Positions 19,727-45,107 of a DNA stretch of 64,000 nt are shown here, in pieces. Every line of letters starts with the position of its first letter. Positions within the stretch are counted from its first letter, which is position 1. Source of the DNA: a virus; the IMG/VR virus record IMGVR_UViG_3300025030_000062, positions 30,900 through 94,899 of that record; one strand, 5' to 3'. The notes under the pieces were generated by a model that was not told the origin of the DNA, made no database searches, and saw nothing but the letters and a program-made list of their open reading frames with translations. The position numbers were made by a program, and so were the translations under genes.

Positions 19727-20516
19727 AATCAACTCCTTTATTGTCTCTATTTCCTTTGCTAACGTTGCAACCTAAGTGCGCAAGCTGAACGTTTTCCGCG
19801 CAGTGCAACCCGCCTTTAGATAAAGGAATTATATGGTCGATTGAAGGGGATAATGGATTTGGAAACTTAAAACTAACATCAACTTGTTTGCCACATAGTT
19901 TGCAGATAAATCCATCACGTTCGTAAATTTTATTGTGATTTATGTTTTCAACGAATTGAGCTTTACGTTTAGCTCTACGTTCAGCGGAATATTGCGCGAA
20001 CTTTAAAGCATTAGCGATTCTATAGTTCTTACCTTTAGTTTTAATCTTATCAGGATGTTTAGCACAAAATCTTTTTTCTTTAGCTTTAACTTTTTCAGGG
20101 TTTTCTTTATTCCATTTTACAATTCCGGCTTTTACTTTTTCTTTGTTTTCATCTCTATACTTTTTAGCTTGCGCTCTGGATTTTTCTGGATTTTCTTTTC
20201 TATATTTTTTACTATATTCTGAAGCATAATTTGGATTCAGTTCTCTATAACGTTTGTTGCGTTCGTTATACTCTTCGAGTTTATTCAATCTACGTTCTCT
20301 TGCTTTGACTGAACATTCTTCTTTATTAAGTTCGTAATGTTTTTTACGGTATTGTTTTAATTTTTCTTTATTATTTTCTCTATGCTTCTTTGCTTTTTCT
20401 GCATTGCGAATTTTACATTTTTCACATACAGTTATTCCTGGCAAAGCTTCGTTTTTGCATCTGGTACATTTACGAAATACTAATTCAACTACTGGAATAT
20501 CTTCGATTTTGAACAT
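19707..20516 (-). CDS. HNH endonuclease with Lys/Glu-rich helical repeats
   Basis: ERDGFICKLCG...SIDHIIPLSKGGLH...NVQLAHLGCNVSK. Confidence 0.85.
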   Translation of the reverse strand: MFKIEDIPVVELVFRKCTRCKNEALPGITVCEKCKIRNAEKAKKHRENNKEKLKQYRKKHYELNKEECSVKARERRLNKLEEYNERNKRYRELNPNYASEYSKKYRKENPEKSRAQAKKYRDENKEKVKAGIVKWNKENPEKVKAKEKRFCAKHPDKIKTKGKNYRIANALKFAQYSAERRAKRKAQFVENINHNKIYERDGFICKLCGKQVDVSFKFPNPLSPSIDHIIPLSKGGLHCAENVQLAHLGCNVSKGNRDNKGVDYEPISS

Positions 20517-20533
20517 AAAGCGCCTCTTTTGAA

Positions 20534-20737
20534 TTAAATTGAAAGTTTAACTGGACTTAAATAGTTGTATAGAGTTACAATTTTGTCAGAACCTGAATCT
20601 TTATCATTACCTCTTTGTAAAAATGAACGCAGCCATTCTACTTGTAATCCGGTATCTATGGCTATTTGAGTTAGTTTTAAACTAATATGTCTATTTTTTA
20701 GTAATGACCAAGTTTTAAGACGAAGTTCTATATTCAT
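20534..20737 (-). CDS. Small HTH DNA-binding protein (paralog of 41523..41717)
   Basis: LTQIAIDTGLQVEWLRSF helix-turn-helix pattern. Confidence 0.65.
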   Translation of the reverse strand: MNIELRLKTWSLLKNRHISLKLTQIAIDTGLQVEWLRSFLQRGNDKDSGSDKIVTLYNYLSPVKLSI

Positions 20738-20759
20738 AAATATTCTCCTTTAAAATGAA

Positions 20760-20799
20760 ACTGAGGCGTATCCTAGCATAAACAGGACGCCTCAGTCAA
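20760..20799 (-). promoter_or_regulatory. Sigma-70-type promoter embedded in an inverted repeat
   Basis: Minus strand TTGACT-18-TAGGAT with TG extension; ACTGAGGCGT (20760-69) / ACGCCTCAGT (20787-96) inverted repeat. Confidence 0.55.
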
Positions 20800-20841
20800 T
20801 GAGATTTTACTGATATTGATGAAAAGTTACGTTAAAATATT

Positions 20842-21885
20842 TTAAGCACGAACCCCCATTAAAGCCCCGCGCACCTTAATGCTATTTGCTTCACCAAAGA
20901 ACATAGCGTAGTTATTAGAATAGAAATCAACAACCTTAATACAACTTTCAATACGTTTCAATTGCTTGATGTTAAAGCAAGGACCGAAATGTATTCCAGG
21001 TACATCGAACACAGCACCTTCGCCCTTGTCTCTATGTGATTGCAAGCAGTTCTCGCCAAAGTACACATTACCTGATTTGCTGAACGGCTCAATAGCAACT
21101 AGAGCTTTATAAAAGCCTATAGGTAGCGGTTGCGGATTACAAGCTACGTTTAAGATATTGTCAATGTTAGGATAAGCTTCTTCGTAAAGCTGCGTTTTGA
21201 CCCATGAGTTATCGTCGTAGAAAAAGGTAACAGAGTTGTTAGAAAATCCTAATTCCTTGAGCGATTTATCGGTGTCGAGCACAGCTGAGATGAATGACTT
21301 TGGCAACAAGAGGGTAGGCAGGTTCATACCGTGCCATACTTCCATGATTACAACAGCATCAGTGCTGATTAGAGAATTCTGACGCAACAATACAGAGCCA
21401 AGGATGACTTTCTTGGCGTCTTCTTTGCTGAAGGGTGCTGCGATATCCATTCCTGCCTTAATCGCGTCAGAAACGGCAGCACAGGGCGCGTCCGGTGCGA
21501 ATCCCGGCGACTCTTCCGGTAAACAAGGAATCGCGGCTGAGAACTTGTCTGCTTTAACAAAAAGCTTGCCAGGATCAACCTGAGTCATGGCAAACTCGGT
21601 AGGACAGTTGCGAATAGCCTCAAGCAGATGCATGATATGCGGCCTAGAGTTCAAATCAACATCAGTCCTAATGCCAGCTGAGATGACGTTGTTTGAAGCT
21701 GTCAATCGTCCGTTATTAAAGCAACAATGTTGTTGTTGGGGCGTACCTGATTTATCAAAGACAACGGAGATAAATTCAAGTTCCTCAAACAGCTTGACAG
21801 AGCGGTTAGCTTTCGGCTTTTGAGTCTTAGTTTGCTTGACTGGCTTAGGCTGCTTAATTGATTTGGAGATAACTCTAGCTGGCAT
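20842..21885 (-). CDS. Phage sliding clamp (DNA polymerase III beta-like)
   Basis: About 350 aa next to polB; LTASN, ISTDA and TQLYEEAYPNIDNIL echo DnaN ATD/ATDG and RLI..xYP motifs. Confidence 0.7.
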   Translation of the reverse strand: MPARVISKSIKQPKPVKQTKTQKPKANRSVKLFEELEFISVVFDKSGTPQQQHCCFNNGRLTASNNVISAGIRTDVDLNSRPHIMHLLEAIRNCPTEFAMTQVDPGKLFVKADKFSAAIPCLPEESPGFAPDAPCAAVSDAIKAGMDIAAPFSKEDAKKVILGSVLLRQNSLISTDAVVIMEVWHGMNLPTLLLPKSFISAVLDTDKSLKELGFSNNSVTFFYDDNSWVKTQLYEEAYPNIDNILNVACNPQPLPIGFYKALVAIEPFSKSGNVYFGENCLQSHRDKGEGAVFDVPGIHFGPCFNIKQLKRIESCIKVVDFYSNNYAMFFGEANSIKVRGALMGVRA

Positions 21886-21894
21886 TTTAATACC

Positions 21895-22131
21895 TCACAG
21901 GTTGCGTAGCAAATCGGTTTTGTCAATCAAACGCCGTAACAAGATAGCAATATTGCTTCCACATAAACAACCGCGATCAACTTGTTCAACATGTGTAGTA
22001 TTACTTACTCTGAATCTATCACCTCTCCAAGTGAACCTAATTGCGTCAGGTTCACTTACATCTATATCTTTAATTTGCTCAGGATAAGGAAGTGACGTAA
22101 TAACAAGTTCAAGAAGTTCTTCGTTTTTCAT
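21895..22131 (-). CDS. Hypothetical protein
   Basis: Overlapping start/stop with neighbours; RBS upstream. Confidence 0.55.
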   Translation of the reverse strand: MKNEELLELVITSLPYPEQIKDIDVSEPDAIRFTWRGDRFRVSNTTHVEQVDRGCLCGSNIAILLRRLIDKTDLLRNL

Positions 22132-22361
22132 ATAAAATCTCCTTCAATCAAAGCTTCAGTTGCGATACAAACAGGGCAATCACAGTTCTTGTTGCTTACG
22201 CCAAGTCCGTTACATTCGCAATCGCGGTCTGTTATGCGTTCTAGGGCGATTTTGTAGATAGAGAGTTTAGCAGCCATCGATTTATACTCTTCAACTGTTC
22301 TAGCGGTCATTGAGCGCATAGGAGGTTGACCGTTGATTTCTAATGTTTCTTCTAAATCCAT
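22128..22361 (-). CDS. Hypothetical protein (Cys cluster)
   Basis: Operon packing; CEC...CDCPVC. Confidence 0.5.
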   Translation of the reverse strand: MDLEETLEINGQPPMRSMTARTVEEYKSMAAKLSIYKIALERITDRDCECNGLGVSNKNCDCPVCIATEALIEGDFI

Positions 22362-22521
22362 TGCCTAACCTCCTTCGGCCTATCAGACACATCTTCGCCA
22401 TTAGCAAGCTTATGTTTGTAAATCTTATACAAGCTGTCGCTTACTACCCATTTGGGGATCATCGGACCTAGTTCGCAATCCATACATTGTTCAGCAAGAT
22501 ATTGCCCACAATTTGTACAGT

Positions 22522-22827
22522 TCATTCTAAACATCCTCCGCAAAGGTCACAAACTTTGTTCTCAGTGTCGCACATCTCAGCATCTTCGTCGTGTAACTCA
22601 GGATCAACCATTTCAACAACCTTGTTAAGCTCAGCGGCAGCTGCTTCGTATTTGGCTTTAGCAAGGTCGTAAGCAGCTTGAGCTTCAGTTTTCAGGAAAG
22701 CGTGCGCTTCGGTCCAGGTGTTGAACCATTTACACCACTTAGTATTAATAGCTCCAAATCCATAATTAAATTCTTCCTTAACTATTTCAGGCGTGTAAGT
22801 CCCAAGCATTGCGCCGTACTTTATCAT
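22522..22827 (-). CDS. Hypothetical protein
   Basis: RBS GGAG; operon packing. Confidence 0.5.
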   Translation of the reverse strand: MIKYGAMLGTYTPEIVKEEFNYGFGAINTKWCKWFNTWTEAHAFLKTEAQAAYDLAKAKYEAAAAELNKVVEMVDPELHDEDAEMCDTENKVCDLCGGCLE

Positions 22828-22855
22828 TTCATTTCTCCGCTAGAGGGAACTAGAG

Positions 22856-23284
22856 TTAAATTAGAAACAAGTATTCGGAGTGATCTCTTGCGTGATGCAA
22901 TGCACAATACCACTTAACCTCAAGAGGTTTGCTGTAGTCTTCGTGGTGCGCCAATACAGGCGTAGCTCCGCAAATTTCACAAGGTAATTTTATTAATTTG
23001 CCTGTTTTAACGGCATATTGGACGGCTCTATGCGCTTCGTGCTTTTCAGGATTACGTCTGCGCCAATCAGCAGTTCTCTCAGTTTTGTTCTCTTTACGTT
23101 TAGGGTCTTCCCGATAGCGTCTCGTATCATATTCTCTAACACTATCGTTGTTAATGCGATGAACTCTGACATCTTTCTTAGTACAATCTTTACACTTATT
23201 AAGATGACCGTCTCCCATTTGAGGATGTTTGTAGAATTCGGAAAGCGGTAGATGCCTATTACATTTAAAGCATGTCTTGCGCAT
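22856..23284 (-). CDS. HNH-like zinc-binding endonuclease
   Basis: KTCFKC...LSEFY...CKDC and CEICG....AHHEDYSKPLEVKWYCALHH; ATG at 23284 after GAGG. Confidence 0.7.
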   Translation of the reverse strand: MRKTCFKCNRHLPLSEFYKHPQMGDGHLNKCKDCTKKDVRVHRINNDSVREYDTRRYREDPKRKENKTERTADWRRRNPEKHEAHRAVQYAVKTGKLIKLPCEICGATPVLAHHEDYSKPLEVKWYCALHHARDHSEYLFLI

Positions 23285-23294
23285 AATTAACCTC

Positions 23295-23555
23295 TCAAAA
23301 GGGACATTCCGCGTAACTCCAATCACCACAAGCCTTAACTATTATCCTAACAGGAGGTCTAGCATTAAAAGCTTTACATAATTCAGCTTGTTCATCAAAT
23401 TTCTCGCAATTTAAACACGAACGCATGTTCTTGTCAAGGATATCTATCACTTGAATGCATAATTGATCAGCCAGCTTGTTAATTGCTTCTTGTCTTGATA
23501 CGTATGTATTGTGGGAACGGTCATGCATTTCGGTTGCTGTCATTCCTTCGCTCAT
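23295..23555 (-). CDS. Small Cys-rich protein
   Basis: SCLNCEKF...C...ARPP..IVKAC. Confidence 0.5.
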   Translation of the reverse strand: MSEGMTATEMHDRSHNTYVSRQEAINKLADQLCIQVIDILDKNMRSCLNCEKFDEQAELCKAFNARPPVRIIVKACGDWSYAECPF

Positions 23556-23824
23556 AATTGCTCCTTCGTGGGTCGGTAGTTCGTAATTAGGTGCTCTAAG
23601 ACTTGATCAAAGGTTTCATTCTCAAGAGTTAAAATTGAGATTGGCTTAACCGTGCCTGCGAAAGTCTTAAGTCTATATTCAACCACATCAACTTTAGGGT
23701 AAGTATGAAATTCGACAACACCAGGCTCAGGTTCATTTAATACAAGAACTCTTAAGTATGTCCCGTTAATCATGACCCGTTGACCATCCAGTGGTCCGCC
23801 TACGCACATGTAGCCTTTCAACAT
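23552..23824 (-). CDS. Hypothetical protein (CxGGPLDG N-terminus)
   Basis: Motif shared with small ORF 23992..24147. Confidence 0.5.
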   Translation of the reverse strand: MLKGYMCVGGPLDGQRVMINGTYLRVLVLNEPEPGVVEFHTYPKVDVVEYRLKTFAGTVKPISILTLENETFDQVLEHLITNYRPTKEQL

Positions 23825-23991
23825 AATATCCTCTCCAATCGCTCCATATCCGAACGAGCGTTATTTAAGAAATCCCAAGGTTCCGTTAGGGCAAGGTATC
23901 CAAGCTGTACCAATAACTTGCTCAACGTAGTACATGCCTTTAATCTTCCTGATTCTAAGCTTCTTGCTCTTAGAATACTCAATACCTTCTT

Positions 23992-24147
23992 TCATATTGC
24001 CAAACCTCGCATTACAAATTTATTCAGTTCTTTGTCGAGAATGTAAGTGTAAGTACGGCAATTAATAGAAGAGGTGAACGAGCTTATTTCAGAACTAAAC
24101 TCAACTTCTTGATTGTCAAGTGGACCGCCTATGCAGAGTAGTTTCAT
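23992..24147 (-). CDS. Hypothetical 51-aa protein (MKLLCIGGPLD...)
   Basis: Manually translated; RBS AAGGAG; below ORF-track length cut-off. Confidence 0.5.
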   Translation of the reverse strand: MKLLCIGGPLDNQEVEFSSEISSFTSSINCRTYTYILDKELNKFVMRGLAI

Positions 24148-24159
24148 TTGTTGGCTCCT

Positions 24160-24804
24160 TTATTCAGCTATAAACACGCAGAGTTTGTTATTAACAGTTT
24201 CGGTTCTTAGTTCAGGAATCACAGTACCTATAAAGCCGCGCAAGCACGATTTTGCACTAGATAAACTGCTATAATGATGGTCAAGCACCTTAATAAGTTC
24301 GTTGAATTCAACTCCTGGTTTAGCGCGTACTAGATTAACCAACTCTCGGCAAGTACGTTTGAAAGGAGTCCATTGACCACCTTTACTCGATCCCGCCTCG
24401 CAAAACGTTTTCTGTTCTTCGTGCAATTTCAGCAAGTGCGGTTTGCGATTGAGTTTAGGTTTAACGCTTTCTTCAACTAAATCTCTATCTATTTCAATCC
24501 TAATAACACCAATTCCGTAATCTTTGCACACATTCTTAGCTAAACCTCTGTAGCCTGCTGATTTCCAAGGAACTGCTACTGAACTGTAATGGCAATGTCT
24601 ACGCCAATTGTAAGCTTGTTCGATAACAGGAAAGCCAAATGAAAGCTTAGCTTCAATTGCCCATTGAATCTTGTCGCGGGTAGCAACGATATCAACTCTA
24701 CCACCTGGACCTTCAACCTCTTGATAGATCGTCCAGCCCCATTCCTGAAGGTTCTTTATCAAGCATTGAGCTAGTTCTTGTTCGGTTATTTTAGGTTGTT
24801 TCAT
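24160..24804 (-). CDS. PD-(D/E)xK nuclease-like protein
   Basis: QEV...RVDIVA......IEAKLS....EQA restriction-endonuclease-fold motif. Confidence 0.6.
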   Translation of the reverse strand: MKQPKITEQELAQCLIKNLQEWGWTIYQEVEGPGGRVDIVATRDKIQWAIEAKLSFGFPVIEQAYNWRRHCHYSSVAVPWKSAGYRGLAKNVCKDYGIGVIRIEIDRDLVEESVKPKLNRKPHLLKLHEEQKTFCEAGSSKGGQWTPFKRTCRELVNLVRAKPGVEFNELIKVLDHHYSSLSSAKSCLRGFIGTVIPELRTETVNNKLCVFIAE

Positions 24805-24813
24805 ATTGTTCCT

Positions 24814-25050
24814 TTACACAAATTCAATTTCAGTTTCAAAGGGAATTGTGCAGCCGTTAGTTAGTTCAGGTCCGAATACATGCATAACTTCATGCATTTG
24901 CATTTTAAATCTTCCGTCGCGTTGCAAATACATTTCAACGTAAGGCGACGGGTCAAGTCCTAGTTCTTTGTAATACTTATTAAATATCTCTTCGCCGCGC
25001 TTAGTTACTTTTATCAAAACTTGGTCATTAACGTTAAATCTCACGCTCAT
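24814..25050 (-). CDS. Hypothetical protein
   Basis: FNVND.V.IK.T..G...MHEVMHVFG pattern; operon packing. Confidence 0.55.
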   Translation of the reverse strand: MSVRFNVNDQVLIKVTKRGEEIFNKYYKELGLDPSPYVEMYLQRDGRFKMQMHEVMHVFGPELTNGCTIPFETEIEFV

Positions 25051-25343
25051 TGTTCAGTCTCCTTTAACGCCGTAGCTAGATACTCAGACTTAATTTCAAG
25101 TATCTCAGCTTCTAACTCTTTAACTTTCTCTTTCAACTCTTTGTTAATATAGTCAAGTTCTCGAATCTGATCTTCCTTGCAACTAATCTGATTCTGAAGA
25201 TCATCCCATTCCTCAGAGCAATTACCTTCAAGCACCTCAATAACTCGCAATACAGCTTCATCAGTTATCGTGTGCTTGTAAGCTTCAAGCCAATCTTTTA
25301 CGTCTTCGTAAGTTTCAATTAAAGCTTCGTCGCGCCTAGACAT
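25047..25343 (-). CDS. Coiled-coil hypothetical protein
   Basis: RBS GGAGG; heptad pattern. Confidence 0.5.
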   Translation of the reverse strand: MSRRDEALIETYEDVKDWLEAYKHTITDEAVLRVIEVLEGNCSEEWDDLQNQISCKEDQIRELDYINKELKEKVKELEAEILEIKSEYLATALKETEQ

Positions 25344-25347
25344 TACA

Positions 25348-26016
25348 CTACCTCCCTATTTCCACGTTAGCCGGAATAACCCTTTGCAGTTCACCAGCAA
25401 GCAGATATCTAACAAGCTGTTCTATATCAGAAGTACTCACTTCAGCTTCTTTAATAGCGTTGTACTCAGCATCGGTAAAGGAAAGAGTGATTGCAGTAGG
25501 CGCTTTAGGAGGGTGAAGCAGTTTTGCAAGAGTATCTTTAGGCATAATTTCCTCGCTAGGTGTTTGGTTAAAGACGAATAAAGGACGATTCTTAATTTCA
25601 CACACGCTGCATCTCGGTCCTGCTCCGCGTACATTAACAGTACATCTTTCGCTGTTTTCAAGCATTGCTTCACATTGTTTACTTATTTTCATATTTTCCT
25701 CCAAAGTTTCAATAGCTCCCAAAGAGCATTGTCTATTTAGAAGCACTACAGGATCAATAACCTCTCCGCATAGTGGACATTGCCAAGCGTCAAAGTGTCT
25801 TACAAAGTCATAAAATCTTTCCTGGCGCATAGGCGCTTTGCAGCGAGGACATTTCATTATTCTTCCTTGATAAACTTCGCAAAGTTGAGCATTCATCATC
25901 CTGATATTATCAGACTCACATAACCCTTCTTCGTCCATGCAAACGTATCTCTTGGTTAACTTGTAAGTAACACAGTCGATCATTAAAGCAGCAGGTCTTT
26001 CAGTGTCAGCAAACAA
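25348..26016 (-). CDS. Multi-module zinc-finger protein with internal RBS+ATG starts
   Basis: MKCPRC...ERFYD...FDAWQCPLCGEVIDP module; internal starts near 25858, 25692 and 25545. Confidence 0.5.
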   Translation of the reverse strand: MFADTERPAALMIDCVTYKLTKRYVCMDEEGLCESDNIRMMNAQLCEVYQGRIMKCPRCKAPMRQERFYDFVRHFDAWQCPLCGEVIDPVVLLNRQCSLGAIETLEENMKISKQCEAMLENSERCTVNVRGAGPRCSVCEIKNRPLFVFNQTPSEEIMPKDTLAKLLHPPKAPTAITLSFTDAEYNAIKEAEVSTSDIEQLVRYLLAGELQRVIPANVEIGR

Positions 26017-26042
26017 ATCAGTTAGCTTAATAGGGTTTTCAT

Positions 26043-26492: not shown

Positions 26493-26905
26493 ACCAGCTT
26501 CTCAATTTGTTCGATAATCTCTTCAAGAGCAAAGCAAACATCACAAATATAATTAACTTCTCTATCACATTTGCATTGTTTATCGTTGCTATAACTGTAG
26601 ATTATTTCAAGAATTTGCTTTTTAGCCGCGTTATATCCTTCGTTGCAAGCTCTAACTTCTATCTGTTGTTTACTAAACATATTACCTCCTTACCCAACCT
26701 CTCACACAACTCAACAGCCTCCTGTTCGCTGAACTCACCTGAACCAGCGGCAACCAATGTTACAGGACCGACGCAAATGGACTTAATTGAAGCATCACAA
26801 CCTCTCAACTGTTCGAACAGTAGTATTTGATTCTTAGCAAACTGTTTGGTATTCATGTTAAGGTACTTGTACTCAACAAGCTCACTCATTTATGTCTCCT
26901 TTGAG

Positions 26906-33613: not shown

Positions 33614-34303
33614 TTACTTACCGGCCCAAGGAGGAGCAGCTGCACCAGCGGCAGGCTGCGGAGCTGCCCAAGTCGGTTGAGCCGGGGCTGCGGGTGCTGC
33701 GCCGTTCCAAGCAGGAGCGGCAGGCGCAGCAGGTTGAGCCTGAGCCGGTGCGGGAGCAGCGCCCCATGCAGGAGCCGCCTGCTGAGGCGCGGCAGGCTGT
33801 ACGGGAGCCTGGGGCGCTTGCTGCGGCGGGGCGGGAGGGGCTGGGGCGGCTGCGGGGCCAGCACCATTGGACTTGCCAGGATCAGAACCGTCCATGTGTT
33901 TGACACCTTTAATCTCTGTCATGTCGGCGTCGTCCGCGTTAGCTTTCTTTTGCAGTCCTACTACACCACGGAAAGGCTGATTATGAAGCTGAGAAGAATC
34001 AACAGCGTCAGGATTGTTGCAAACATGACAGAGCGCGGAAAGTTGTCGCGCTGCAATTTCAACGGTTTTGGCATTTTCGTTGAAAAGGTTAATGCGGTAC
34101 TTTCCTTCCTGTCCAGTGTGCTCGCCTTCGATAATGCGAACGTTCAGTTCAAGATAACCGTTATTTGCGTTACCTTTGGATGCTTTCATTTCGGAAGCGG
34201 TAATGACCATAGGCCATCCATCAGAAGACGAAATGGGAAGCTGTGAGAAATTACCCTGCGGTGCTACGGTGCGTGCGGAAAAACCTTGTGGAAACTGAGC
34301 CAT
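33614..34303 (-). CDS. Single-stranded DNA-binding protein (DUF669-like)
   Basis: YLEL...IIEGEH.G....RINL.N......IA..QLSALC; Pro/Ala/Gln-rich tail ending PPW; near AAA_24 gene. Confidence 0.75.
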   Translation of the reverse strand: MAQFPQGFSARTVAPQGNFSQLPISSSDGWPMVITASEMKASKGNANNGYLELNVRIIEGEHTGQEGKYRINLFNENAKTVEIAARQLSALCHVCNNPDAVDSSQLHNQPFRGVVGLQKKANADDADMTEIKGVKHMDGSDPGKSNGAGPAAAPAPPAPPQQAPQAPVQPAAPQQAAPAWGAAPAPAQAQPAAPAAPAWNGAAPAAPAQPTWAAPQPAAGAAAPPWAGK

Positions 34304-35055
34304 TACATTACTCCTTCTGTTGTGGGTTGAGGTTGCGGCCAAGGCCATACTACCGATTTTAGATGTTGAATTATTGCTCGATCCCTCCTTATCTCTTCAA
34401 TGTCGTTAAGTTTAGCAAACTCTCCGAAAAACTTAATTGCTGCGTCATTGTAAGCTATTGCTGCGTCAACAGCGTTATCAAATGTTCCCAACCAATTTAT
34501 TTTACCGTTGAAAGTTATTTTAGCATTATATTTGCCTAGTGATAAGCCAACACCTTTTATACCGGTCACGTTATCTTTATGTGTGTTTCTGTTAAAACTG
34601 TTTTCTTGATTTGTGCAAGGTCTTAAATTTTCTTTACTGTTGTTTAATTTATTTCTGTCAATATGATCATATTGTATCCTATTTCCCATAATAACATGAT
34701 GAATCTTTCCCATTTTATGATGCGCTACATATCCTTTAGTTTGTAACGACCATTTAATTTTGGAAATTTTTGGAATATCTTCAGTGTCTACTATGGTTCT
34801 TTCAATTACCTCACCTTTTCTATTATATAAAAACATAAATGATAATTTACCATCTATTGGTTCAAATTCGTTAGGTGTAAATCTAGTACGAGAAAGAATT
34901 TTACCGTGCTTCTTGAATTGTTGAAAATGATTATAACAGAATCCGATTCCATAGTATTCGAGATTACATCCTTCAACCTTGCAAGGTTCAGTATGTTTTC
35001 TAGGACGTTTCTGAACAGCAACATCTTGTATGATAAACTCTTCAGAAACGTCCAT
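34303..35055 (-). CDS. HNH homing endonuclease with AP2 domain
   Basis: DHIDRNKLNNSKENLR; TGIKGV...WLGTF....DAAIAYNDAA...FGEFA. Confidence 0.85.
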   Translation of the reverse strand: MDVSEEFIIQDVAVQKRPRKHTEPCKVEGCNLEYYGIGFCYNHFQQFKKHGKILSRTRFTPNEFEPIDGKLSFMFLYNRKGEVIERTIVDTEDIPKISKIKWSLQTKGYVAHHKMGKIHHVIMGNRIQYDHIDRNKLNNSKENLRPCTNQENSFNRNTHKDNVTGIKGVGLSLGKYNAKITFNGKINWLGTFDNAVDAAIAYNDAAIKFFGEFAKLNDIEEIRRDRAIIQHLKSVVWPWPQPQPTTEGVM

Positions 35056-35095: not shown

Positions 35096-35317
35096 TTAAG
35101 TGTGCTCAATAACGTAATCAATCGCGTCCTGAACAGTAGTAATCTTCTCAGCTTCTTCATCAGGAATATCAATTTCAAACTCTTCCTCTATCTCCATAAT
35201 TAGTTCCACTGTGTCGAGCGAATCAGCACCAAGCTCTTCAAAGGTCTGATCGTTCCTTACTTCTTCAACGCCAAGAGTGTCTTCAACAATTTCTTTTACT
35301 TTTGCTTCAATACTCAC
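35096..35317 (-). CDS. acpP: Acyl carrier protein
   Basis: [11 protein letters not shown] phosphopantetheine-attachment motif and [22 protein letters not shown]. Confidence 0.93.
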
Positions 35318-37514: not shown

Positions 37515-38459
37515 TTATAGTAAAGCAAGCTGCTCGGATGTCATGTCAGAAGGATCACGGAAAGCTTTGAAAACTAAAATTCTAGGCTTGTCAACACATC
37601 CGATTTCTTGATATTTGAAAGTTGCTATTTTGTCAACAAATTCTTTTTGATTTTCCCAAATATATTTAGCCTCGGCGTGAGTCAACTTACCGCAACCTAG
37701 TTTAAAATCGCCCCATTTCTTGTTTCTGACAAGAAATTTACCTAAAGTGTTAGCAGGAACCATACCTTCTTGTGATTGACTGCGTTTGGCGTATCCTAAT
37801 TCATTTTGAATTGATTCGTTCGTATTCATCATGCGTTCTTCAAAACCAACTATGATACACTCTTCGTCTACAAAAGGTTTACGTTTTAACAATTCTTGAC
37901 CTTTAAGCGTACTTCTGCCAAACTTATATTTACCTGTCAACTCACGAATCATAATACCTTCATAACCGTCAGACAAGGCTTGTTCTTCAAAAGCTAACAG
38001 TTCTGTCAAGTTATTACAAACAACTTGAGGTAGAAGTTTTATAAACGAAGGAATTAGATCAGCGTTTACTGAAAAACAACTGTGCAAATAACCGTATCGC
38101 TGGTTAAAAGAGCGTTCATCATTCCAATTGTCAAATACCCACATTGTGAAGTTAGGTGTTCCTGAAGAATTCATAATTGCCGAGCTAACCAAATTAAACG
38201 GATGTGTACCAGGAATTTGAGGCTTTTCGATGTCAGTAAGTAAAAGTTCAGAATCAAATCCTTCAAAACAGTTCAAGTAAGGATCGTTGGTTATGGAGTT
38301 AAATATGTGAGCGTTTCTAATGTCCTTAAGAGTGTTAGACAACGGTTTGCCGTCTTTAATTACGCAGCGAATGCCGTCAAGTTTAAGCGAAGCTGCTAAA
38401 GGGAAGCGTAATTGACTTAGATGTTTATCTTCACAGGTTTCTGCTTTCATAGGTTTCAT
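37515..38459 (-). CDS. ATP-dependent DNA ligase
   Basis: KLDGIR (motif I), FDSEL, VFD, GYEGIMIR, YKFGRS, LLKRK. Confidence 0.92.
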   Translation of the reverse strand: MKPMKAETCEDKHLSQLRFPLAASLKLDGIRCVIKDGKPLSNTLKDIRNAHIFNSITNDPYLNCFEGFDSELLLTDIEKPQIPGTHPFNLVSSAIMNSSGTPNFTMWVFDNWNDERSFNQRYGYLHSCFSVNADLIPSFIKLLPQVVCNNLTELLAFEEQALSDGYEGIMIRELTGKYKFGRSTLKGQELLKRKPFVDEECIIVGFEERMMNTNESIQNELGYAKRSQSQEGMVPANTLGKFLVRNKKWGDFKLGCGKLTHAEAKYIWENQKEFVDKIATFKYQEIGCVDKPRILVFKAFRDPSDMTSEQLALL

Positions 38460-39013
38460 TTAGAATAATCCTTTGCTCAATGTGGTTTTCTTTAGGCTGA
38501 TTATCTGCGAACTCTTTGAAATATAGTAATTCGGCTTTTCTTCGTTCTTCAATGGCGTCTTCTATGTTTTTAAAGAATCCTAAATGAATTTGCTTTTTAT
38601 TACAAGAAATATAAGCACGATATGAGTCTCTGGCTTTGTAAAAGCTAACTCCACTTACTCTTGTTTTGCTATTGTTAGGCGTTTTCCTGTTTCTACAATT
38701 TTGCGCTTTAGTACATATTCTAAGGTTTTCACGCCGATTGTCCAAAGTGTTTCTATCAATATGATCAACAACCATAAATTCTGTAACATCCATTATGAAT
38801 CTATGTAGAAGAATTAATTCGTTTTGCTCGGTTCTGCATCTGACATACAATATCCCTTTATTGCGGTGTATATACCAACTTTCTTTCTTAACTTTTTCAA
38901 CATTCTTCAAGTGAAATTAAAACTCTATTGCTTTCACTCCAATCCCTAAAGTATATAACTAGTACAGCGTGATCTTCTTTTATTAAAATTTCATTAGGTG
39001 GCTTTCTAGGCAT
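38431..39013 (-). pseudogene. Frameshifted HNH-AP2 homing endonuclease
   Basis: ATG at 39013 reads ...ISLEEC-stop; removing one A near 38904 gives ISLEDVEKVKKESW in frame with DHIDRNTLDNRRENLR and the AP2 domain. Confidence 0.7.
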
Positions 39014-39048
39014 TTTTAATTCCTTTGTTGTATCTATTTACAACTCAC

Positions 39049-39077
39049 CTTATACAGAAGTTAATTCAGAGAGTCAA
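39049..39077 (-). promoter_or_regulatory. Sigma-70-type promoter of the HNH cassette
   Basis: Minus strand TTGACT-17-TATAAG with TG extension. Confidence 0.6.
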
Positions 39078-39089
39078 GGGATTCTAAAG

Positions 39090-39764
39090 TTAATTTATAC
39101 TATTAATTCGACCACAACAACGCGGTCCTTCGCTGCAAACACCTTTCGTTACACAAGAGGGACCAAGCTTTGCAAACGTAACCGGCGCAACAGGTTTAAC
39201 AAGCTTATTTACAGTTTCAAAGAGTTCTTTAATCTCCCATTGAGCATGATTACATTCCCGCAAACCGCAAGCATGGTGAATTTCCCTTGCGTTCATCGTA
39301 ACGATAATCTTAGTTTCGCAAGCGTTAGGAGCAATAAACCTAGCGTCTTCAGCAGGAATACCGGCGTTAATAAGAATGTTATAAAATTCACACAAATCGG
39401 CCATTTTGTGTTCAAAAGCTTCGAACATTTCAGGCAAAGCTCGAATAGACGGTGGGATTATATAATTAAATCCATTATTAAATGTAACGTATCTTTGTGA
39501 TTGCTGGCTAAAGCTCGCATGTCTGAATCTGACAAGTTGATGGCTCAACGCTCTCGACACACCTTCAATAGCAAACGTAAAAGAAGCGTGTTCCAGACAG
39601 CTTGTATGCCCACAATTAATGATCTTCTCAATTAGCTTAGCATCGCTCGCTTCGTTAACAAAATCCCAATTGTCGCCAACAAAGCCTTCAGCGTAGCACT
39701 GCCTCGCCGCCGTTGCTATTACGTGATCAGGATCAGGAGTATATGCTTTAAGGAGTACGTTCAT
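39090..39764 (-). CDS. thyX: Flavin-dependent thymidylate synthase
   Basis: GHTSCLEH, SRALSHQLVR.R..SFSQQSQRY, EDARF..PNA, MNARE, AQWEI; ATG at 39764. Confidence 0.9.
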   Translation of the reverse strand: MNVLLKAYTPDPDHVIATAARQCYAEGFVGDNWDFVNEASDAKLIEKIINCGHTSCLEHASFTFAIEGVSRALSHQLVRFRHASFSQQSQRYVTFNNGFNYIIPPSIRALPEMFEAFEHKMADLCEFYNILINAGIPAEDARFIAPNACETKIIVTMNAREIHHACGLRECNHAQWEIKELFETVNKLVKPVAPVTFAKLGPSCVTKGVCSEGPRCCGRINSIN

Positions 39765-39771
39765 TTCGTTA

Positions 39772-40701
39772 TCACCTCTTGGCCCAATCAGGCAGTTCAT
39801 AATTTGTTTGAGCCTCAATAAACTTAGCAGCCGCTATCTGAAGATAGTGACATCCTTTCATAAAGTCCAACATTTCTTGTCCAGGGCGCTGATTCTTGCC
39901 GAAGCGGTTAGCGTATTTCTTACTTTGTTCAATACAGTATTCAATGCTCCAATCTGTAGCTTGATCTTCACCTTTATCTTTGTACTGAGGAATTGTATAG
40001 TTTTCAATATGATCTGCCACCTTATAAGCAAATTCAAGCCATTCTGCCGTGCGAATGCCTTTGTACTGCTGTTCACTTGTGGGCAATACTCGCTTACTAT
40101 CTTTAGCAGCTTCAATGATATCGTCGGCAAGTTGTTCAGTGTTAGGATAGGTAATTGTGCTGTTTATTACATCTTCGTAAGGAAGAGAACTGGTTTTATG
40201 ATTAAAAGGTTTGTGATTACGAGGTTTAGAAGATAGGTTTTCAGCAACAGACTGAGCGACATTAACAGATATCTTTTCATTCAGCGGAACCTGCGTTGCT
40301 AATCCAGTTATGAATTGAGGTTTCTCCAACAACTCCCTCTCAGCAACAACATCACGATTAATAGCAGCTTCCGAGCTAAACTTAGCAGGGTAGCGCAGCT
40401 TCAACTTGTTGATGTTGAGGGTTAGGACTTCGTTCATTGTAGTTTTAAGTTCATTTAATGCAAGAGCGATATACCACGAACAATCGCTCAATTCCTCTTT
40501 CGCATTAACTACATCAAGAGCTTTTCCGTAGTAGATGTGCTTTTTGATCATATCAACGAACTCGCCAGCTTCGGTAGCAAGACCCATCGCAGCATGTTGA
40601 AGTCTAGCGCATTTGATCATTCTAGCGTAAAGTTCTGCATCGTATTTACAATCCGTATTCATTGCGTGTTCAACGTAGTTCTCTGAGGTAATCTGTTCCA
40701 A
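39772..40701 (-). CDS. MazG-like NTP pyrophosphohydrolase fused to a C-terminal helical domain
   Basis: HAAMGLATEAGEFVDMIKK...EELSD..WY...NINKLKLRYP. Confidence 0.8.
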   Translation of the reverse strand: MEQITSENYVEHAMNTDCKYDAELYARMIKCARLQHAAMGLATEAGEFVDMIKKHIYYGKALDVVNAKEELSDCSWYIALALNELKTTMNEVLTLNINKLKLRYPAKFSSEAAINRDVVAERELLEKPQFITGLATQVPLNEKISVNVAQSVAENLSSKPRNHKPFNHKTSSLPYEDVINSTITYPNTEQLADDIIEAAKDSKRVLPTSEQQYKGIRTAEWLEFAYKVADHIENYTIPQYKDKGEDQATDWSIEYCIEQSKKYANRFGKNQRPGQEMLDFMKGCHYLQIAAAKFIEAQTNYELPDWAKR

Positions 40702-40792
40702 AGTTTAGTTCTCCTTTAAAATATTATTAAGGTTATTAGCATTCCTGTTATCATTCCAAATATAAATATTGCAGACACAAGTTGTTTATCCA

Positions 40793-41005
40793 TTACTTTA
40801 AACCCCTCCAAACAACAAAGCACTTAGCCGCCAAAGTAATCAGTTCCTGCTTCATTTGAGCAACGTTCTTCTTTTCAGCAGCAGTTTCAACCGCTTCAAA
40901 TTGCTCAAGCAAAAGGTCAACTTTCTCTTTGTTGGTAAAGTTGTGATAAGAAGTGTCGGTTTCTTCCATCATCTCAGAGACGAAGTACATGCTATCAACG
41001 CTCAT
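40793..41005 (-). CDS. Small helical protein, possibly degenerate MazG-like
   Basis: LLEQFE...KQELITLAA resembles the ELIQVAA motif. Confidence 0.35.
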   Translation of the reverse strand: MSVDSMYFVSEMMEETDTSYHNFTNKEKVDLLLEQFEAVETAAEKKNVAQMKQELITLAAKCFVVWRGLK

Positions 41006-41175
41006 ACAGCACCTTGCTCAATGCGTCGGTAACGCGTGCAATAACTTTACTGTCGCGTTGTTTGAGAGCGTCAACTATTAGGGATTGCAAAGCGGCTCTG
41101 GATTGACCACGATCATGATAACGTCTTTCTGTCCAGGCGTTAATAACGTTGAGAGCAATTTCATCTAAGGCAGGA

Positions 41176-41340
41176 TTAGCCATTAGTCACCTCTTCAGCG
41201 AGCTTAACGGCGTCTTGATAAGTTTCGGCGGTGGGGCAATTAAACTTAAAGCAATATTTCAGTTCAAGTTCATATAACGGGCAATTGTTGCAATCATCTA
41301 AGCGCCCATTACTGTCATAGGCTGGATTCTCAACTCTCAC
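41176..41340 (-). CDS. 54-aa Cys-rich protein (paralog of 32670..32897)
   Basis: Manual translation MRVENP...CNNCPL...CPTAETYQDA; RBS AAGGAGG, GTG start. Confidence 0.6.
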   Translation of the reverse strand: MRVENPAYDSNGRLDDCNNCPLYELELKYCFKFNCPTAETYQDAVKLAEEVTNG

Positions 41341-41400
41341 AACAGCCCTCCTTTAATGTTAATTTAAGTTAATTTTGCTGGTTCGGTTCGACGTGACCGG

Positions 41401-41493
41401 ACATTAGCTTGAAACGAGTACAATTGTCAAGGAAAACTTTTAGGTGTCAAATTAAATTAAAACTTGCATTGAGATACCTCTTTGTGGTAGCTT
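41401..41493. promoter_or_regulatory. Divergent sigma-70-type promoters at strand switch
   Basis: Leftward TTGACA-18-TAATGT (41430-41401); rightward TTGCAT-18-TAGCTT with TG extension (41464-41493). Confidence 0.5.
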
Positions 41494-41522
41494 TCCGACC
41501 AAATCAGCACAGGAGGTTTGGC

Positions 41523-41717
41523 TTGCTACGTGAAAAAACTCTAACTTTACTCAAAGAACGTTCGTCTAATATCAAGCTGTTAGATATAGCTATTGCGACA
41601 GGTCTTAGCTTCTATTGGCTTCAGTCCTTTTTAAAAAACGGACATGATTCTGATCCTGGTGTTGATAAAGTCGAAACTCTTTATAATTATCTCAGCCCTA
41701 AAAAGCTGAAATGTTAA
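41523..41717 (+). CDS. Small HTH DNA-binding protein
   Basis: TTG 6 nt after AGGAGG; LLDIAIATGLSFYWLQSF...TLYNYLSP. Confidence 0.65.
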   Translation: MLREKTLTLLKERSSNIKLLDIAIATGLSFYWLQSFLKNGHDSDPGVDKVETLYNYLSPKKLKC

Positions 41718-41732
41718 CAAAGGAGAACCGTA

Positions 41733-42089
41733 TTGGAACTGCTATTCGAGCAAGCCGAAACTGTGCCTGAACCAGAACAGTGCAAAGGTCTAGTCTTTCG
41801 CGGCTACAACTCAACCTTTAAATCCGGTAATCATGTGGGCAGGCATCAAGGTATTAAATTGCTTAAGAGGCAATCATGCCCTGGGTGCGAGAAGTGTTAT
41901 TTCTTACTAGATTTTGTTAGTGAAGATATTTATTGCGGTTCTCTTGAAATGCCCGAAATTGAGAACGGTGAGCTTTATTCGATTGAAGTAGTTGTTGATG
42001 GAAGAGATTGGGAAACCGGTTACGTTGATGATTGTCATGCTCGCGTTTATAAAATTGAATCTGATTTCATCGGGTCGGTTAAGCCCTAA
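41733..42089 (+). CDS. Hypothetical protein (CPGCEKC)
   Basis: RBS AAGGAG; operon packing. Confidence 0.55.
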   Translation: MELLFEQAETVPEPEQCKGLVFRGYNSTFKSGNHVGRHQGIKLLKRQSCPGCEKCYFLLDFVSEDIYCGSLEMPEIENGELYSIEVVVDGRDWETGYVDDCHARVYKIESDFIGSVKP

Positions 42090-42122
42090 ATTCCAAATTA
42101 TCAGCCAAACAGGAGGCATAAT

Positions 42123-43397
42123 TTGAATACTCAAGAACGCTTAGAAGCTGCTTACCGTGAAAATCCTTCTATTGGTCGCAAACTACTAGCTAAAGCTGCT
42201 AAATGCAGCCTCGGTCCAGCTCAGAGGTTCTTGGAGAAGAAAAGAGGAATTAAGCCTAGAACTAAAGTTAAAACTGAAACTGAACACAAAGATGAAGTAA
42301 ACACCTTATTTAACAAAGACGCAGCAGAAGTTACGGTTAACTCGTTACGTGTAATATCCCTTGATGATGCTTTACGTATATCAAAAGTAGACCTTTCTCT
42401 TTATGAGGTTGATAGATACGTTGTCAACGCCTGGGAAGTAACTATTAAAGGTGATAACGGACCTGAACAAGCAACGAACCATCAAGTTAAGGTTTGGCTC
42501 AAGCGTTTACATCCTGCGATTACCGCTTTCAGCAGACTGATTGAACAAGTTGAATCGCGTCCTGCTTGCGCCAGGGATCATGCACCACTACCCGAATTAG
42601 TCGATCCTCATATGTTAGAAATTTCTCTAATGGATCATCATTTTGGCAAGCTGGCTTGGCGGGGCGAAACCGGCGACGATTACGATCTTAAAATAGCTCA
42701 GCGAATCTATCAGGCTGCTGTGAGAGACTTGTTAGCTCGCGCTAAAGGCTACAACATAGGCAAAATACTCTTTCCAGTGGGTCAGGACTTCTTTAACATT
42801 GACAACAACGCAAACACTACTACAGGCGGCACAGCTCAAGATTCAGATGGTCGGCTTGCTAAAATCTTTGAAATAGGCTGTAATGCAGTAATTGATGCAA
42901 TTGATTACTGCTCACAGGTTGCTGAAGTTGAAGTTATCTACGTTCCTGGTAATCACGACTACACTACCAGCTATTACCTCGTTAAATATCTACAAGCTTG
43001 GTATCGTAACTGTGAACGTGTAAGTATTAATGCTGTACCCACAAGCAGAAAGTATATCAAGTACGGTGTTAACCTGCTCGGCTTTAGTCACGGCTGTGAT
43101 GAAAAGCGCGATTCGTTGCCGCTTATTATGCTCAGTGAATGCAGAGATATGATCCAGGATGTTAAGCACTTTGAATTTCACACTGGTCATTTGCATATGA
43201 AGCGCGAAACTAAGTATGTTGCCGGTGATAGCTTCGGGCCTGTGATAGTTCGCATATTACCTTCGTTGTGTGGCACTGATGCCTATCATTATAAAAAGGG
43301 CTACACGGAAGGTAGGAAGAGTGCTGAAGCTTATCTTTGGAGTGAAATGAACGGCTTTGTTGCGTTGTTTAACGTTTATGCGAGGAATTATGAATAG
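42123..43397 (+). CDS. Calcineurin-like metallophosphoesterase with N-terminal HTH-like region
   Basis: DHHFG, GQDFF, GNHD, SHG, GHLH metal-binding motifs. Confidence 0.85.
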   Translation: MNTQERLEAAYRENPSIGRKLLAKAAKCSLGPAQRFLEKKRGIKPRTKVKTETEHKDEVNTLFNKDAAEVTVNSLRVISLDDALRISKVDLSLYEVDRYVVNAWEVTIKGDNGPEQATNHQVKVWLKRLHPAITAFSRLIEQVESRPACARDHAPLPELVDPHMLEISLMDHHFGKLAWRGETGDDYDLKIAQRIYQAAVRDLLARAKGYNIGKILFPVGQDFFNIDNNANTTTGGTAQDSDGRLAKIFEIGCNAVIDAIDYCSQVAEVEVIYVPGNHDYTTSYYLVKYLQAWYRNCERVSINAVPTSRKYIKYGVNLLGFSHGCDEKRDSLPLIMLSECRDMIQDVKHFEFHTGHLHMKRETKYVAGDSFGPVIVRILPSLCGTDAYHYKKGYTEGRKSAEAYLWSEMNGFVALFNVYARNYE

Positions 43398-43728
43398 TCT
43401 GCCTACTTACGAAGTTAAAATCTTTGTCGGATTGCGTATTGGTTATAGTAAGATGATAAATAACTTTCAAACTGTGATTAATATTTGTCAAAACTATTGC
43501 AACGAAGTGTGTCTTTGCGTCACCGTTACTCCGACGACTTTTGTTTATGTAAACGGTAATGAGCCTGGAGCTATAATCGGTTTAATCAACTATCCGCGCT
43601 TTCCGTCTACTGAAGAAGATGTTTGCAATAAAGCAATTAAACTCGCTGAAATTTTGAAAGAAGAACTTCAGCAACAACGAGTTAGTGTTATGACTCCTAC
43701 TGAAAGTATTATGATCGGTGAAAGCTAA
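43390..43728 (+). CDS. Hypothetical protein
   Basis: CVTVTPT.FVY..G.EPG..IGLINYPRFP; ATG after GAGG. Confidence 0.6.
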   Translation: MNSLPTYEVKIFVGLRIGYSKMINNFQTVINICQNYCNEVCLCVTVTPTTFVYVNGNEPGAIIGLINYPRFPSTEEDVCNKAIKLAEILKEELQQQRVSVMTPTESIMIGES

Positions 43729-43903
43729 TGAACGAAGCTAATGTAGAGAAAATAGATTATCCTTTTGCTTTATTTCCAGTAAGAACATGTTCGGGTAAAC
43801 TTGTTTGGCTTAAAAGAGTCAAACGTAAATGGTATTGGATAGGATATGCAATAGATGATTTGGTAGGTCATTCCCCTTACATCATTTATTACGAGGAACT
43901 TTG

Positions 43904-44259
43904 ATGGAATTTATAATTGAGGACATACCGGTAATAGAGGCTTCAGTAACGCCTAAATTTCAGCACATTTCTCAAGTAAATGATGAATTTTATGGCGCAA
44001 CCACTGAACAAAAGCGTATAAGCTCTTTGCTGGTGGAGTGACTAACCTGGACTGGCGTCAGGCTAAAGGCTTAAAAGCTATCAATCAGGATTGGTGTAAT
44101 CTTTATTACGCTCACCTTTGGGATTATTACATTTGGGAGAATCCACATTTACTTGAGGTGCTGAAAGCTGCTTCGGGGTTGAGTGATATGTTTGGTCAGG
44201 TCGGGCATTGCTGTCAAGCTACTGAACTTTGGCGCATAAGAAATAAGGAGTTAATTTAA
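43904..44259 (+). pseudogene. Split gene; C-terminal part resembles NADAR-like phage proteins
   Basis: 43904..44041 (45 aa) overlaps a -1 frame encoding WRQAKG...LWD.YI.ENP.LL......LSDMFGQ..CCQA; family by recall only. Confidence 0.35.
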
Positions 44260-45107
44260 TGCTTTTCCAAGATATTAAAAACGGAAGATTCTATTTAGGC
44301 GATTGTCTTGAGGTAATGAAAGAGATTCCTGATGGTGTAATTGATATGATTCTTTGTGATCTGCCTTATGGAACTACTGCTTGTAAGTGGGATACTATTA
44401 TTCCGTTTAATCTGCTTTGGGAACAGTATGAAAGGATTATTAAGCCGAATGGGGCTATTGTACTTACAGCTAGTCAGCCTTTTACGAGTGCGTTAGTTAT
44501 GAGTAATGTTAGCTTGTTTAAATATGAATTGATATGGGAAAAGAGCAGAGCTTCTAATTTTGTTCATGCTAAGTATCAACCTTTAAAAGCCCATGAAAAC
44601 ATAATAGTTTTTAGTAAAGCGGCTGCTGCTCAAGGTACTAAGAACCCTATGTGTTATTACCCGCAGCACTCAAAAGGGAAACCTTACATAAAAGGAAAAG
44701 GTCATCAAGATAACCAGCATTTAGCAGGAGGTATGACTAAAAGCGAAACGATACAAGGTGTTAATGTCACAGGTGACAGAACGCCAAGAAGTGTTTCATA
44801 TTTCAGCAGCGATTCGGATAAGCAGCAGCGGGGTCTTCATCCAACCCAAAAGCCAGTAGCTTTATTCGAGTACCTAATCAAGACCTACACCAACGAAGGT
44901 GAACTTGTATTAGACAATTGCGCCGGATCAGGCACAACAGCTATAGCTTGTGAGAACACTAATCGTAGTTGGGTTTGTATTGAAAAAGAAGAAGAGTACG
45001 CTAACAAAGCTGTTGATAGAATATTAAATCACAATGTTCAACCGCAACAAATTCTAGCTCAAGAACCAGAAACCTTTGTTATTGAAGATGTTGCTGTGAA
45101 CGATTAG
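44259..45107 (+). CDS. DNA N6-adenine/N4-cytosine methyltransferase (beta class)
   Basis: GDCL, DLPYG, HPTQKP, VLDNCAGSGTT. Confidence 0.9.
   Translation: MLFQDIKNGRFYLGDCLEVMKEIPDGVIDMILCDLPYGTTACKWDTIIPFNLLWEQYERIIKPNGAIVLTASQPFTSALVMSNVSLFKYELIWEKSRASNFVHAKYQPLKAHENIIVFSKAAAAQGTKNPMCYYPQHSKGKPYIKGKGHQDNQHLAGGMTKSETIQGVNVTGDRTPRSVSYFSSDSDKQQRGLHPTQKPVALFEYLIKTYTNEGELVLDNCAGSGTTAIACENTNRSWVCIEKEEEYANKAVDRILNHNVQPQQILAQEPETFVIEDVAVND

Follow-up and report, generated by a model that had tools for sequence, protein, structure and literature searches.

A short peptide shared by unrelated DNA-processing proteins of a 95-kb phage genome as a candidate docking tag

The stretch of DNA analysed here (the window, 64,000 nucleotides) corresponds to bases 30900-94899 of the 94,899-bp virus record IMGVR_UViG_3300025030_000062 in IMG/VR, and several otherwise unrelated proteins of this phage share a short peptide, F-x-I-[EQ]-D-[IV]-[PA]-V. 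We consider it rather probable that this peptide is a tag, a portable short linear motif that docks the proteins carrying it on one shared putative partner. The reading is supported because the tag lies in unstructured segments, is absent from most homologs of its carriers, recurs on other replication proteins of related phages and does not fit the Q-type consensus of sliding-clamp ligands. It also has the properties by which short linear motifs are defined, namely a length of 3-10 residues, a place in disordered regions, independent gain by proteins that are not related, and freedom of position. A preliminary description of the sequence had proposed a docking tag outside the catalytic domains, and the same observations support that part of the proposal, but none of the partners it had suggested (clamp, the protein SSB that binds single-stranded DNA, or helicase) emerged from cis docking in single-chain AlphaFold2 models.

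When the whole 94,899-bp genome was scanned in six frames, four strict matches were returned, all of them in the window. They are FKIEDIPV at 20490..20513 (-), residues 2-9 of an HNH endonuclease that starts MFKIEDIPV; FIIQDVAV at 35014..35037 (-), residues 7-14 of an HNH_3/AP2-type endonuclease that starts MDVSEEFIIQDVAV; FIIEDIPV at 43910..43933 (+), residues 3-10 of a 45-residue protein that starts MEFIIEDIPV; and FVIEDVAV at 45075..45098 (+), residues 273-280 of a 282-residue methyltransferase, which ends QEPETFVIEDVAVND after a Gln/Pro linker. These four instances had been reported before, and translation bears out their positions. The same scan found a fifth copy, in which Tyr replaces Phe (GYVIEDIAVEVV), at residues Y90-V97 of a 201-residue DUF7303 protein whose gene (genome 8473-9078, +) is outside the window. 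Three of the five copies are N-terminal, one is internal and one is near the C-terminus, followed there by N-D. The number of carriers, given as four in the preliminary description, is thus five, and the motif is not always terminal as stated there, since the fifth copy is in the linker of the DUF7303 protein.

By composition, 0.005 strict matches would be expected in six frames, and in 2000 residue shuffles of the set of open reading frames (ORFs) the mean number of motif matches was 0.0015; a chance origin of the copies is ruled out by the shuffles. The codons diverge widely among the copies and the flanking DNA is unrelated. The likeness therefore sits at the protein level, as had been suggested, and a DNA repeat or recent gene conversion can be discarded.

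The first HNH endonuclease (19707..20516, -; PF01844, phrog_338) is encoded between the clamp and polymerase genes and has its tag directly ahead of a Cys4 zinc ribbon. The tag is missing from 118 of its 119 homologs; the exception, P0340, starts MYEIESNIPIPV (MYEIESNIPIP), with the tag in the same place and the same architecture. In the HNH_3/AP2-type endonuclease (HNH-AP2; 34303..35055, -; PF13392, phrog_99) the tag is within a 23-residue N-terminal extension, and most homologs begin at the zinc finger, which is at residue 24 here. Only one homolog, P0293, has it, again at the N-terminus, and 148 out of 149 do not. The N6_N4 DNA methyltransferase (44259..45107, +; PF01555) bears the tag on a C-terminal tail; its catalytic Pfam match stops at residue 251 and the tag comes 22 residues further on. 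Among the 119 closest homologs the motif is found in the last 35 residues of 20 and in the enzyme body of none; it is absent from the other 99, and most of the 119 end directly after the catalytic core. Tagged tails read, for example, ...VKIDSDIPIPEGEENGN, ...IQIENDIPIPEGEEA, ...FPIESVPLSK and ...FVIEDIAVNE, and it is acidic residues, not basic ones, that come next. The prevalence of untagged homologs, which had been proposed as a check, is clear in all three families; because most homologs lack it, the tag is an add-on to the HNH and methyltransferase families and not a part of them.

To judge from these comparisons, the tags are also better conserved than the enzyme bodies. P0293 is 42% identical overall to the HNH-AP2 protein of this phage, and its first 18 residues are identical; the methyltransferase P0042 is 63% identical overall, and its 28-residue tail is almost identical. 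The contig that encodes P0042, L292, is from a 93%-identical relative of this phage and has the methyltransferase at a different locus with the tail conserved, the last 34 codons differing by 5 synonymous and 3 conservative changes.

The metagenome contig L292 aligns to the window at 40679-41396, 41720-41970 and 44245-45106, so that its methyltransferase is between the 41.3-kb and 41.7-kb genes and not at 44.3 kb; at the DNA level the two methyltransferase genes match at their two ends only (90% and 84%), and the flanking genes are 93% identical. The match of the ends alone, together with the moved locus, indicates a mosaic, relocating cassette. The 45-residue ORF (43904..44041, +) consists of the tag and 35 further residues, begins with the ATG at 43904 behind a GAGGA ribosome site and has no family match. 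It overlaps its neighbours on both sides, the stop of the upstream gene with its start and the start of the next gene with its end. It is possible that this protein is a free competitor or adaptor. Just upstream of the tagged HNH-AP2 gene, and inside the replication module, is a 73-residue acyl-carrier-protein homolog (35096-35317, -; PP-binding, 2.6e-16).

The gene for the fifth carrier (PF23978, phrog_7597) has a strong ribosome site and comes just before those for lysis and terminase. The protein is a full-length member of the DUF7303 family, with a match of 2.4e-43 and 148.3 bits against a Pfam gathering cut-off of 27 that covers residues 6-199 of 201. The block F-x-I-E-[DN]-(x)-[IV]-[PA]-[IVL]-[PVA] is kept in 24 aligned homologs, down to 35% identity; it comes after a variable low-complexity spacer, between the N-domain and a C-domain that opens YPFD.L.VGQSF. 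The AlphaFold2 model (mean predicted local distance difference test score, pLDDT, 76.9) has two confident domains, and residues 78-110, which include the motif, have pLDDT below 50. An integral element of the DUF7303 fold was considered and rejected, the segment being a low-confidence linker. The N-domain is winged-helix-like (VIA-align Z 6-8 against MarR/PadR-type proteins, a generic fold match only); a fold search with the C-domain gave no match, the ESM Atlas yielded no functional lead and a full-text literature search found no paper on DUF7303. Two stand-alone proteins of 82-92 residues in L218 (G003:C1; 1045-1323 and 1352-1600, both -) are DUF7303 C-domains only (FPF..L.IGQSF), and one of them is preceded by a tag-like VESELPLP; clusters of DUF7303 proteins of 81-91 residues are also present in the ESM Atlas.

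Across the DUF7303 family the linker, which is predicted to be disordered, conserves a form with a longer turn, x-I-[ED]-x-x-[IV]-P-[IVLM]-P. A relaxed pattern matches 47 DUF7303 genes across 76 IMG/VR loci, and in the 23 regex-negative loci inspected the motif can still be recognised, although in part degenerate, for example as FLIEDGIEMP, FAIIDNASLP or YAVITNAELP; at locus L078 the motif is very degenerate. What stays nearly constant is a hydrophobic pair (F and I, two residues apart), an acidic, Gly or Asn turn of 2-3 residues whose length varies, and another hydrophobic pair with the same spacing, usually with Pro after it. DUF7303 is present in 126 phage records; for the clamp the number is 296, and the clamp is encoded in 25 of 26 near-complete DUF7303 phage records. 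The DUF7303 phages include Septimatrevirus (73, Ab26, Kakheti25), Lokivirus (Loki, Halfdan) and phages of Xanthomonas, Rhodobacter, Sphingomonas, Acinetobacter and Achromobacter, and the hosts of the phages that keep the motif are alpha-, beta- and gammaproteobacteria. The DUF7303 phages examined share the replication module of this phage: a family-B polymerase, a beta-type clamp, a DUF669 SSB, a Sak4-like ATPase, an SF2 helicase and a primase.

In related phages the tag is also found on other replication proteins. The clamp of phage 73 (gp027) starts MKIDSNIPLPPEDE, an N-terminal tag, and tagged clamps likewise start MTTQIENDVPIP in G010, MTTQIDNNVPLP in G012, MEIENNVPMP in G013, MTTQIEDNVPIP in G014 and MNTELNEDVPVP in L244; in all of these clamps a Lys/Arg-rich linker lies between the tag and the ring. 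In an AlphaFold2 model of one tagged clamp the ring has pLDDT of about 95 and residues 1-34 average below 50 (9-14 and 22 just reach 50). A position-specific matrix built from 53 DUF7303 instances and applied to 15 genomes with a cut-off of 13 bits gave 25 matches, against 0-4 in shuffles: 15 DUF7303 proteins, 5 clamp N-termini, 1 Cas4-like exonuclease, 3 copies of a 78-residue protein and 1 unannotated ORF. The exonuclease tag is N-terminal (LPIDDNVPIP; in L029 MLPIDDNVPVPEG), as is that of the 78-residue protein (MYEIETGHKMP... in phage 73 gp040, MIKIESNVPMP... in KL1-like phages), and the SSB tail of Halfdan contains a tag-like VANNVPMP. All five copies of the present phage have a 2-residue turn (I-E-D-I/V), likewise the DUF7303 proteins closest to it. 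The carriers other than DUF7303 in the 15 comparison genomes all have the 3-residue turn, a form around which the scans were built and which they favoured; a few methyltransferase tails elsewhere are short-turn. Scans of the whole records of four short-turn DUF7303 contigs gave no copy besides that of DUF7303.

Neighbouring genes offer a view of how the tag changes owner. In 4 of 5 marine phage contigs the tagged methyltransferase gene stops 59-74 bases upstream of the clamp gene, and the methyltransferase tail with the clamp start that follows (...VKIDSDIPIPEGEENGN and, after the stop, MEIKTESKAKPKHRARRPK...) is collinear with the tagged N-terminus of the phage 73 clamp (MKIDSNIPLPPEDEAPAAEPTKRKPRARK...). 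By this collinearity the tag clearly moves from one gene to another, through fusion or fission where the genes meet. Such movement, for instance from a methyltransferase tail to a clamp N-terminus, would also be expected if the tags were functionless leftovers of recombination and shifting boundaries among neighbouring replication genes; the mosaic methyltransferase, found at differing loci in close relatives, and the mobile HNH genes point the same way. We regard leftovers as very unlikely, however: among the five copies the codons have diverged thoroughly and the residues have been kept, the motif persists across DUF7303 homologs to 35% identity, and the tags outlast the enzyme bodies in conservation.

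The range of carriers bears on several further explanations. One is that there is no dedicated receptor and that the tags, as amphipathic hairpins in disordered regions, pair with each other as beta-zipper stickers, co-assembling their carriers into one replication focus on DNA with the help of a basic stretch. Hub proteins are themselves carriers (the clamp, the SSB tail), a Lys/Arg/Gly-rich stretch often follows the tag (GRGRGG, KPKRKSRARK, KRRGGGRAG, QKRPRK), and none of the protein families can be singled out as an obligate partner that is never a carrier. On the other hand, the methyltransferase tails continue with acidic residues, the AlphaFold2 models (monomers only) have no self-pairing tendency and homotypic short linear motifs are uncommon, and we think mutual pairing improbable.

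A signal for turnover or control would be a degron for a host or phage protease, or a handle by which a phage inhibitor restrains the nucleases and the methylase. Three carriers in this phage are potentially toxic DNA-cutting or DNA-modifying enzymes, degrons are commonly terminal and the 45-residue protein, being little more than a tag, could be a competitor. Against this, the motif is internal in DUF7303 across a large family, is found on the clamp, which must persist in replication, and is conserved in phages of three proteobacterial classes of host, and such a role seems to us a shade less credible still than mutual pairing. The last of these explanations is a capsid-targeting sequence like those of the T4 internal proteins, loading the carriers into the head for injection. 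The three N-terminal copies would suit it, and I-x-E resembles the site of the T4 prohead protease; T4-type targeting leaders are strictly N-terminal, however, and here there are C-terminal and internal copies, the carriers include clamp, exonuclease and SSB tail, and no link to head genes was seen. We give it hardly any credence. Both capsid targeting and a degron had been put forward in the preliminary description, and the internal copy and the replication-protein carriers make a capsid-targeting signal and an N- or C-degron each a poor fit.

In the docking reading, which we prefer to all of these, the tag would be an address of about 8-10 residues, placed where the protein is flexible (the N-terminus, a C-terminal tail or a linker between domains), and would dock its carrier on one shared partner within the DNA-replication and processing machinery of the phage. 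Alternating hydrophobic residues flank an acidic turn of 2-3 residues (F-x-I | E-D(-x) | I-P-V(-P)), which points to a small beta-hairpin of amphipathic character or a pair of strands, perhaps formed only on binding; the binding, the sharing of the partner and this shape are what we infer from the sequences and models. In this phage the tag would bring two HNH endonucleases, the methyltransferase, the winged-helix DUF7303 protein and the 45-residue peptide to the same site, and in phage 73-like relatives it would do likewise for the sliding clamp, the Cas4-like exonuclease, the 78-residue protein and methyltransferases; fusion or fission at gene boundaries would pass it from gene to gene.

Several points weigh against this reading. 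Low pLDDT in a model is no proof of disorder, and the conserved tail in the 93%-identical relative could partly reflect recent common descent. The nearest relative fragment, L136, whose primase is 78% identical, contains no tag and its HNH-AP2 protein is untagged. Strict F.IEDIPV is not enriched at protein ends in IMG/VR, where 56 matches compare with a rough chance estimate of about 30; these are mostly internal segments of other families, and the strict motif as a general terminal tag of phages is ruled out. Finally, single-chain AlphaFold2 docked the tag neither on the tagged clamp (a monomer) nor on the domains of DUF7303 itself, which argues weakly against clamp and DUF7303 as receptors.

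L136 is the sole IMG/VR relative found, and it is also without the methyltransferase and the 45-residue ORF. It has the untagged HNH-AP2 gene at 7312-8169 and, at 9055-10002, a 315-residue Lys-rich repeat protein in place of the 45-residue ORF and methyltransferase; a hot spot for gene replacement lies upstream of the primase. There was no close relative in the isolate phage collection, megablast giving no match and the polymerase being at most 51% identical.

Candidate receptors are encoded in the same replication module. By analogy, the carriers (methylase, nucleases, winged-helix protein) look like a typical list of sliding-clamp clients, and the phage beta-type clamp (20842..21885, -; phrog_947), bound through a second site, is a possible partner, one we would back only tentatively. 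In this phage the clamp has neither the N-terminal tag nor a DDIPF end and stops right after the ring. The misfit to the consensus, the polymerase and ligase that already end in Q-type motifs and the frequent presence of the tag on the clamp itself count against the known clamp pocket as the reader. The polymerase or the primase is as possible a partner as the clamp: the family-B DNA polymerase (17675..19732, -), which ends QQIKFF, and the primase (45156..47747, +; phrog_3022, with a weak DUF3987-like match at its C-terminus) have no tag in any copy seen. A conserved host protein is a rather doubtful candidate. The SF2 helicase and Sak4 are conserved and have no tag in any copy seen; they are candidate receptors like the polymerase, the primase and a host protein. 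The DUF669-type SSB (33614..34348, -) is an unlikely partner.

The same SSB has a tail of about 90 residues rich in Ala, Pro and Gln, along which P-x-W units recur four times at even spacing (APAWG, APAWN, QPTWA and the terminal APPWAGK); the homologs in phage 73 and Halfdan are of the same design, with GGxWGG units, and end APWGQR or PAWGQPR. On sequence these units look like a second, Trp-based repeated docking motif. At its N-terminus the polymerase has a duplicated F-T-D-E-[EK]-L unit (FFTDEELVPI, EFTDEKLYEA). Two small ORFs, 20534-20737 (-) and 41409-41717 (+), share the end ...[VE]TLYNYLSP.KL..., and a related 143-residue protein adjoins the exonuclease gene of L136; the two may be small regulators, paralogous to each other, on either side of the replication genes.

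Replisomes organise their sets of tools by hub-and-tag wiring, as with clamp motifs and SSB tips, and such contacts between peptide and pocket are drug targets. It is conceivable, although we would not give it even chances, that the present tag is the ligand of a second, unrecognised docking hub in a large phage group (73-like, Lokivirus-like and this 95-kb lineage), distinct from the clamp pocket and SSB-tip system and coupling to one site the clamp, methylase, nucleases, homing endonucleases and a winged-helix protein whose gene stands at the head of the late genes. If so, a small viral replisome would contain an address system of three codes, Q-type, DDIPF-type and hairpin-type. A true third tag, common to clamp, methylase, nucleases and a conserved protein of no described function, would provide a testable role for DUF7303 and for several orphan proteins of phages and would show how selfish homing endonucleases reach replicating DNA. 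The tag is also a worked example of hopping between neighbouring genes. The phage records with DUF7303 and the clamp include cultivable models on E. coli K-12 (Halfdan, Shy) and Pseudomonas aeruginosa, and a 10-residue peptide is a simple handle for fishing out the partner.

A full-text search of the literature on shared motifs of phage clamps and HNH enzymes found no paper on this motif, and the known docking systems resemble it to differing degrees. Within DUF7303 the motif is a conserved column block, and the fifth carrier is a full-length member; the family is without a described function, however, and the motif is present on unrelated proteins too and is not a fold element of the family. 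Beta-clamp-binding motifs and the PIP boxes of eukaryotes and archaea are similar in kind: they are short, lie in the disordered ends or loops of many unrelated DNA enzymes, often with charged flanks, and have a single hub reader. Their clients (polymerases, ligase, nucleases, a methyltransferase such as DNMT1, and transcription factors such as T4 gp33/gp55 and Mu C) make a list similar to that of the carriers here. As for location in a disordered terminus or loop, the linker of DUF7303 and the N-terminal tag block of the clamp, with mean pLDDT below 50, agree with these motifs. The clamp-binding consensus is Qφx[L/M][F/L] or Qφx[L/M]x[F/L] (PMC11139829). Neither the five copies nor the family-wide forms have the Gln anchor or the L/M-F/L pair, and the distinction from the Q-type motif drawn in the preliminary description holds. 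The classic clamp-binding type is present in this phage at other C-termini, those of the polymerase (KREQQIKFF) and of the ATP-dependent ligase (37515-38459, -; SEQLALL). The tag differs further in that related phages carry it on the clamp itself and in that AlphaFold2 left it off the clamp.

The closer likeness in style is to the SSB C-terminus (...MDFDDDIPF) and the portable DDIPF tips of phage clamps, helicases and zinc-ribbon proteins: acidic residues precede I-P-hydrophobic, with a further hydrophobic upstream, at the ends of disordered segments and on various phage replication proteins. The acidic run just before I-P-hydrophobic is seen in E-D-I-P-V and E-D-V-A-V here and in [ED]-x-[DN]-[IV]-P-φ in relatives. 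Alternatively to a partner of its own, the tag might be an internalised mimic of the SSB tip. It would then bind the tip pocket either of Sak4 or another phage protein or of proteins of the host (clamp-loader chi, PriA, RecQ, ExoI, primase), and the carriers would pass themselves off as SSB to gain access to the replication and repair factors of the host. E-D-I-P-V aligns with D-D-I-P-F, and M-D-F-D-D-D-I-P-F is collinear with the long form, φ-x-I-[ED]-D-x-I-P-φ. True tips occur in the same phages, since the clamps of 73-like phages and a small zinc-ribbon protein end ...EDDIPF, ...DDDIPF or ...DEIPF, and one clamp ends MEIDDDIPF. Recruitment of Sak4 by the SSB tip of a phage is known (PMC5928155), and this phage has a Sak4-like AAA_24 protein.

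The known tip, however, is a C-terminal hexapeptide with a final Phe, and its binding requires a free carboxylate. The tag is never at the extreme C-terminus: it is N-terminal, in a linker or followed by further residues, usually Pro next, and its last residue is V here and V, I, M or L elsewhere, never F. Furthermore, it co-exists with true tips in one genome and even in one protein, the phage 73 clamp, which bears both the N-terminal tag and a C-terminal DDIPF, and this phage has a separate tip-like YAECPF. The latter is the end of an 86-residue Cys4 zinc-ribbon protein (23295-23555, -) whose homologs in related phages end DDIPF or DEIPF. Two co-existing tags suggest two different readers. 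We regard an SSB mimic as unlikely, and the tag and the SSB tip, alike in style, are probably read by different sites.

In the acidic C-terminal tails of T7 gp2.5 and gp4 and the hydrophobic tails of T4 gp43, gp33 and gp55, one type of tail serves one hub, the T7 polymerase and the T4 clamp respectively. These phages thus have in common with the docking reading that several replication or transcription proteins share a tail type that docks to one hub, and differ in that the tails are strictly C-terminal and of other sequence. Set beside the clamp motif and the SSB tip, and matching neither, the tag looks from its sequence like a third, undescribed kind.

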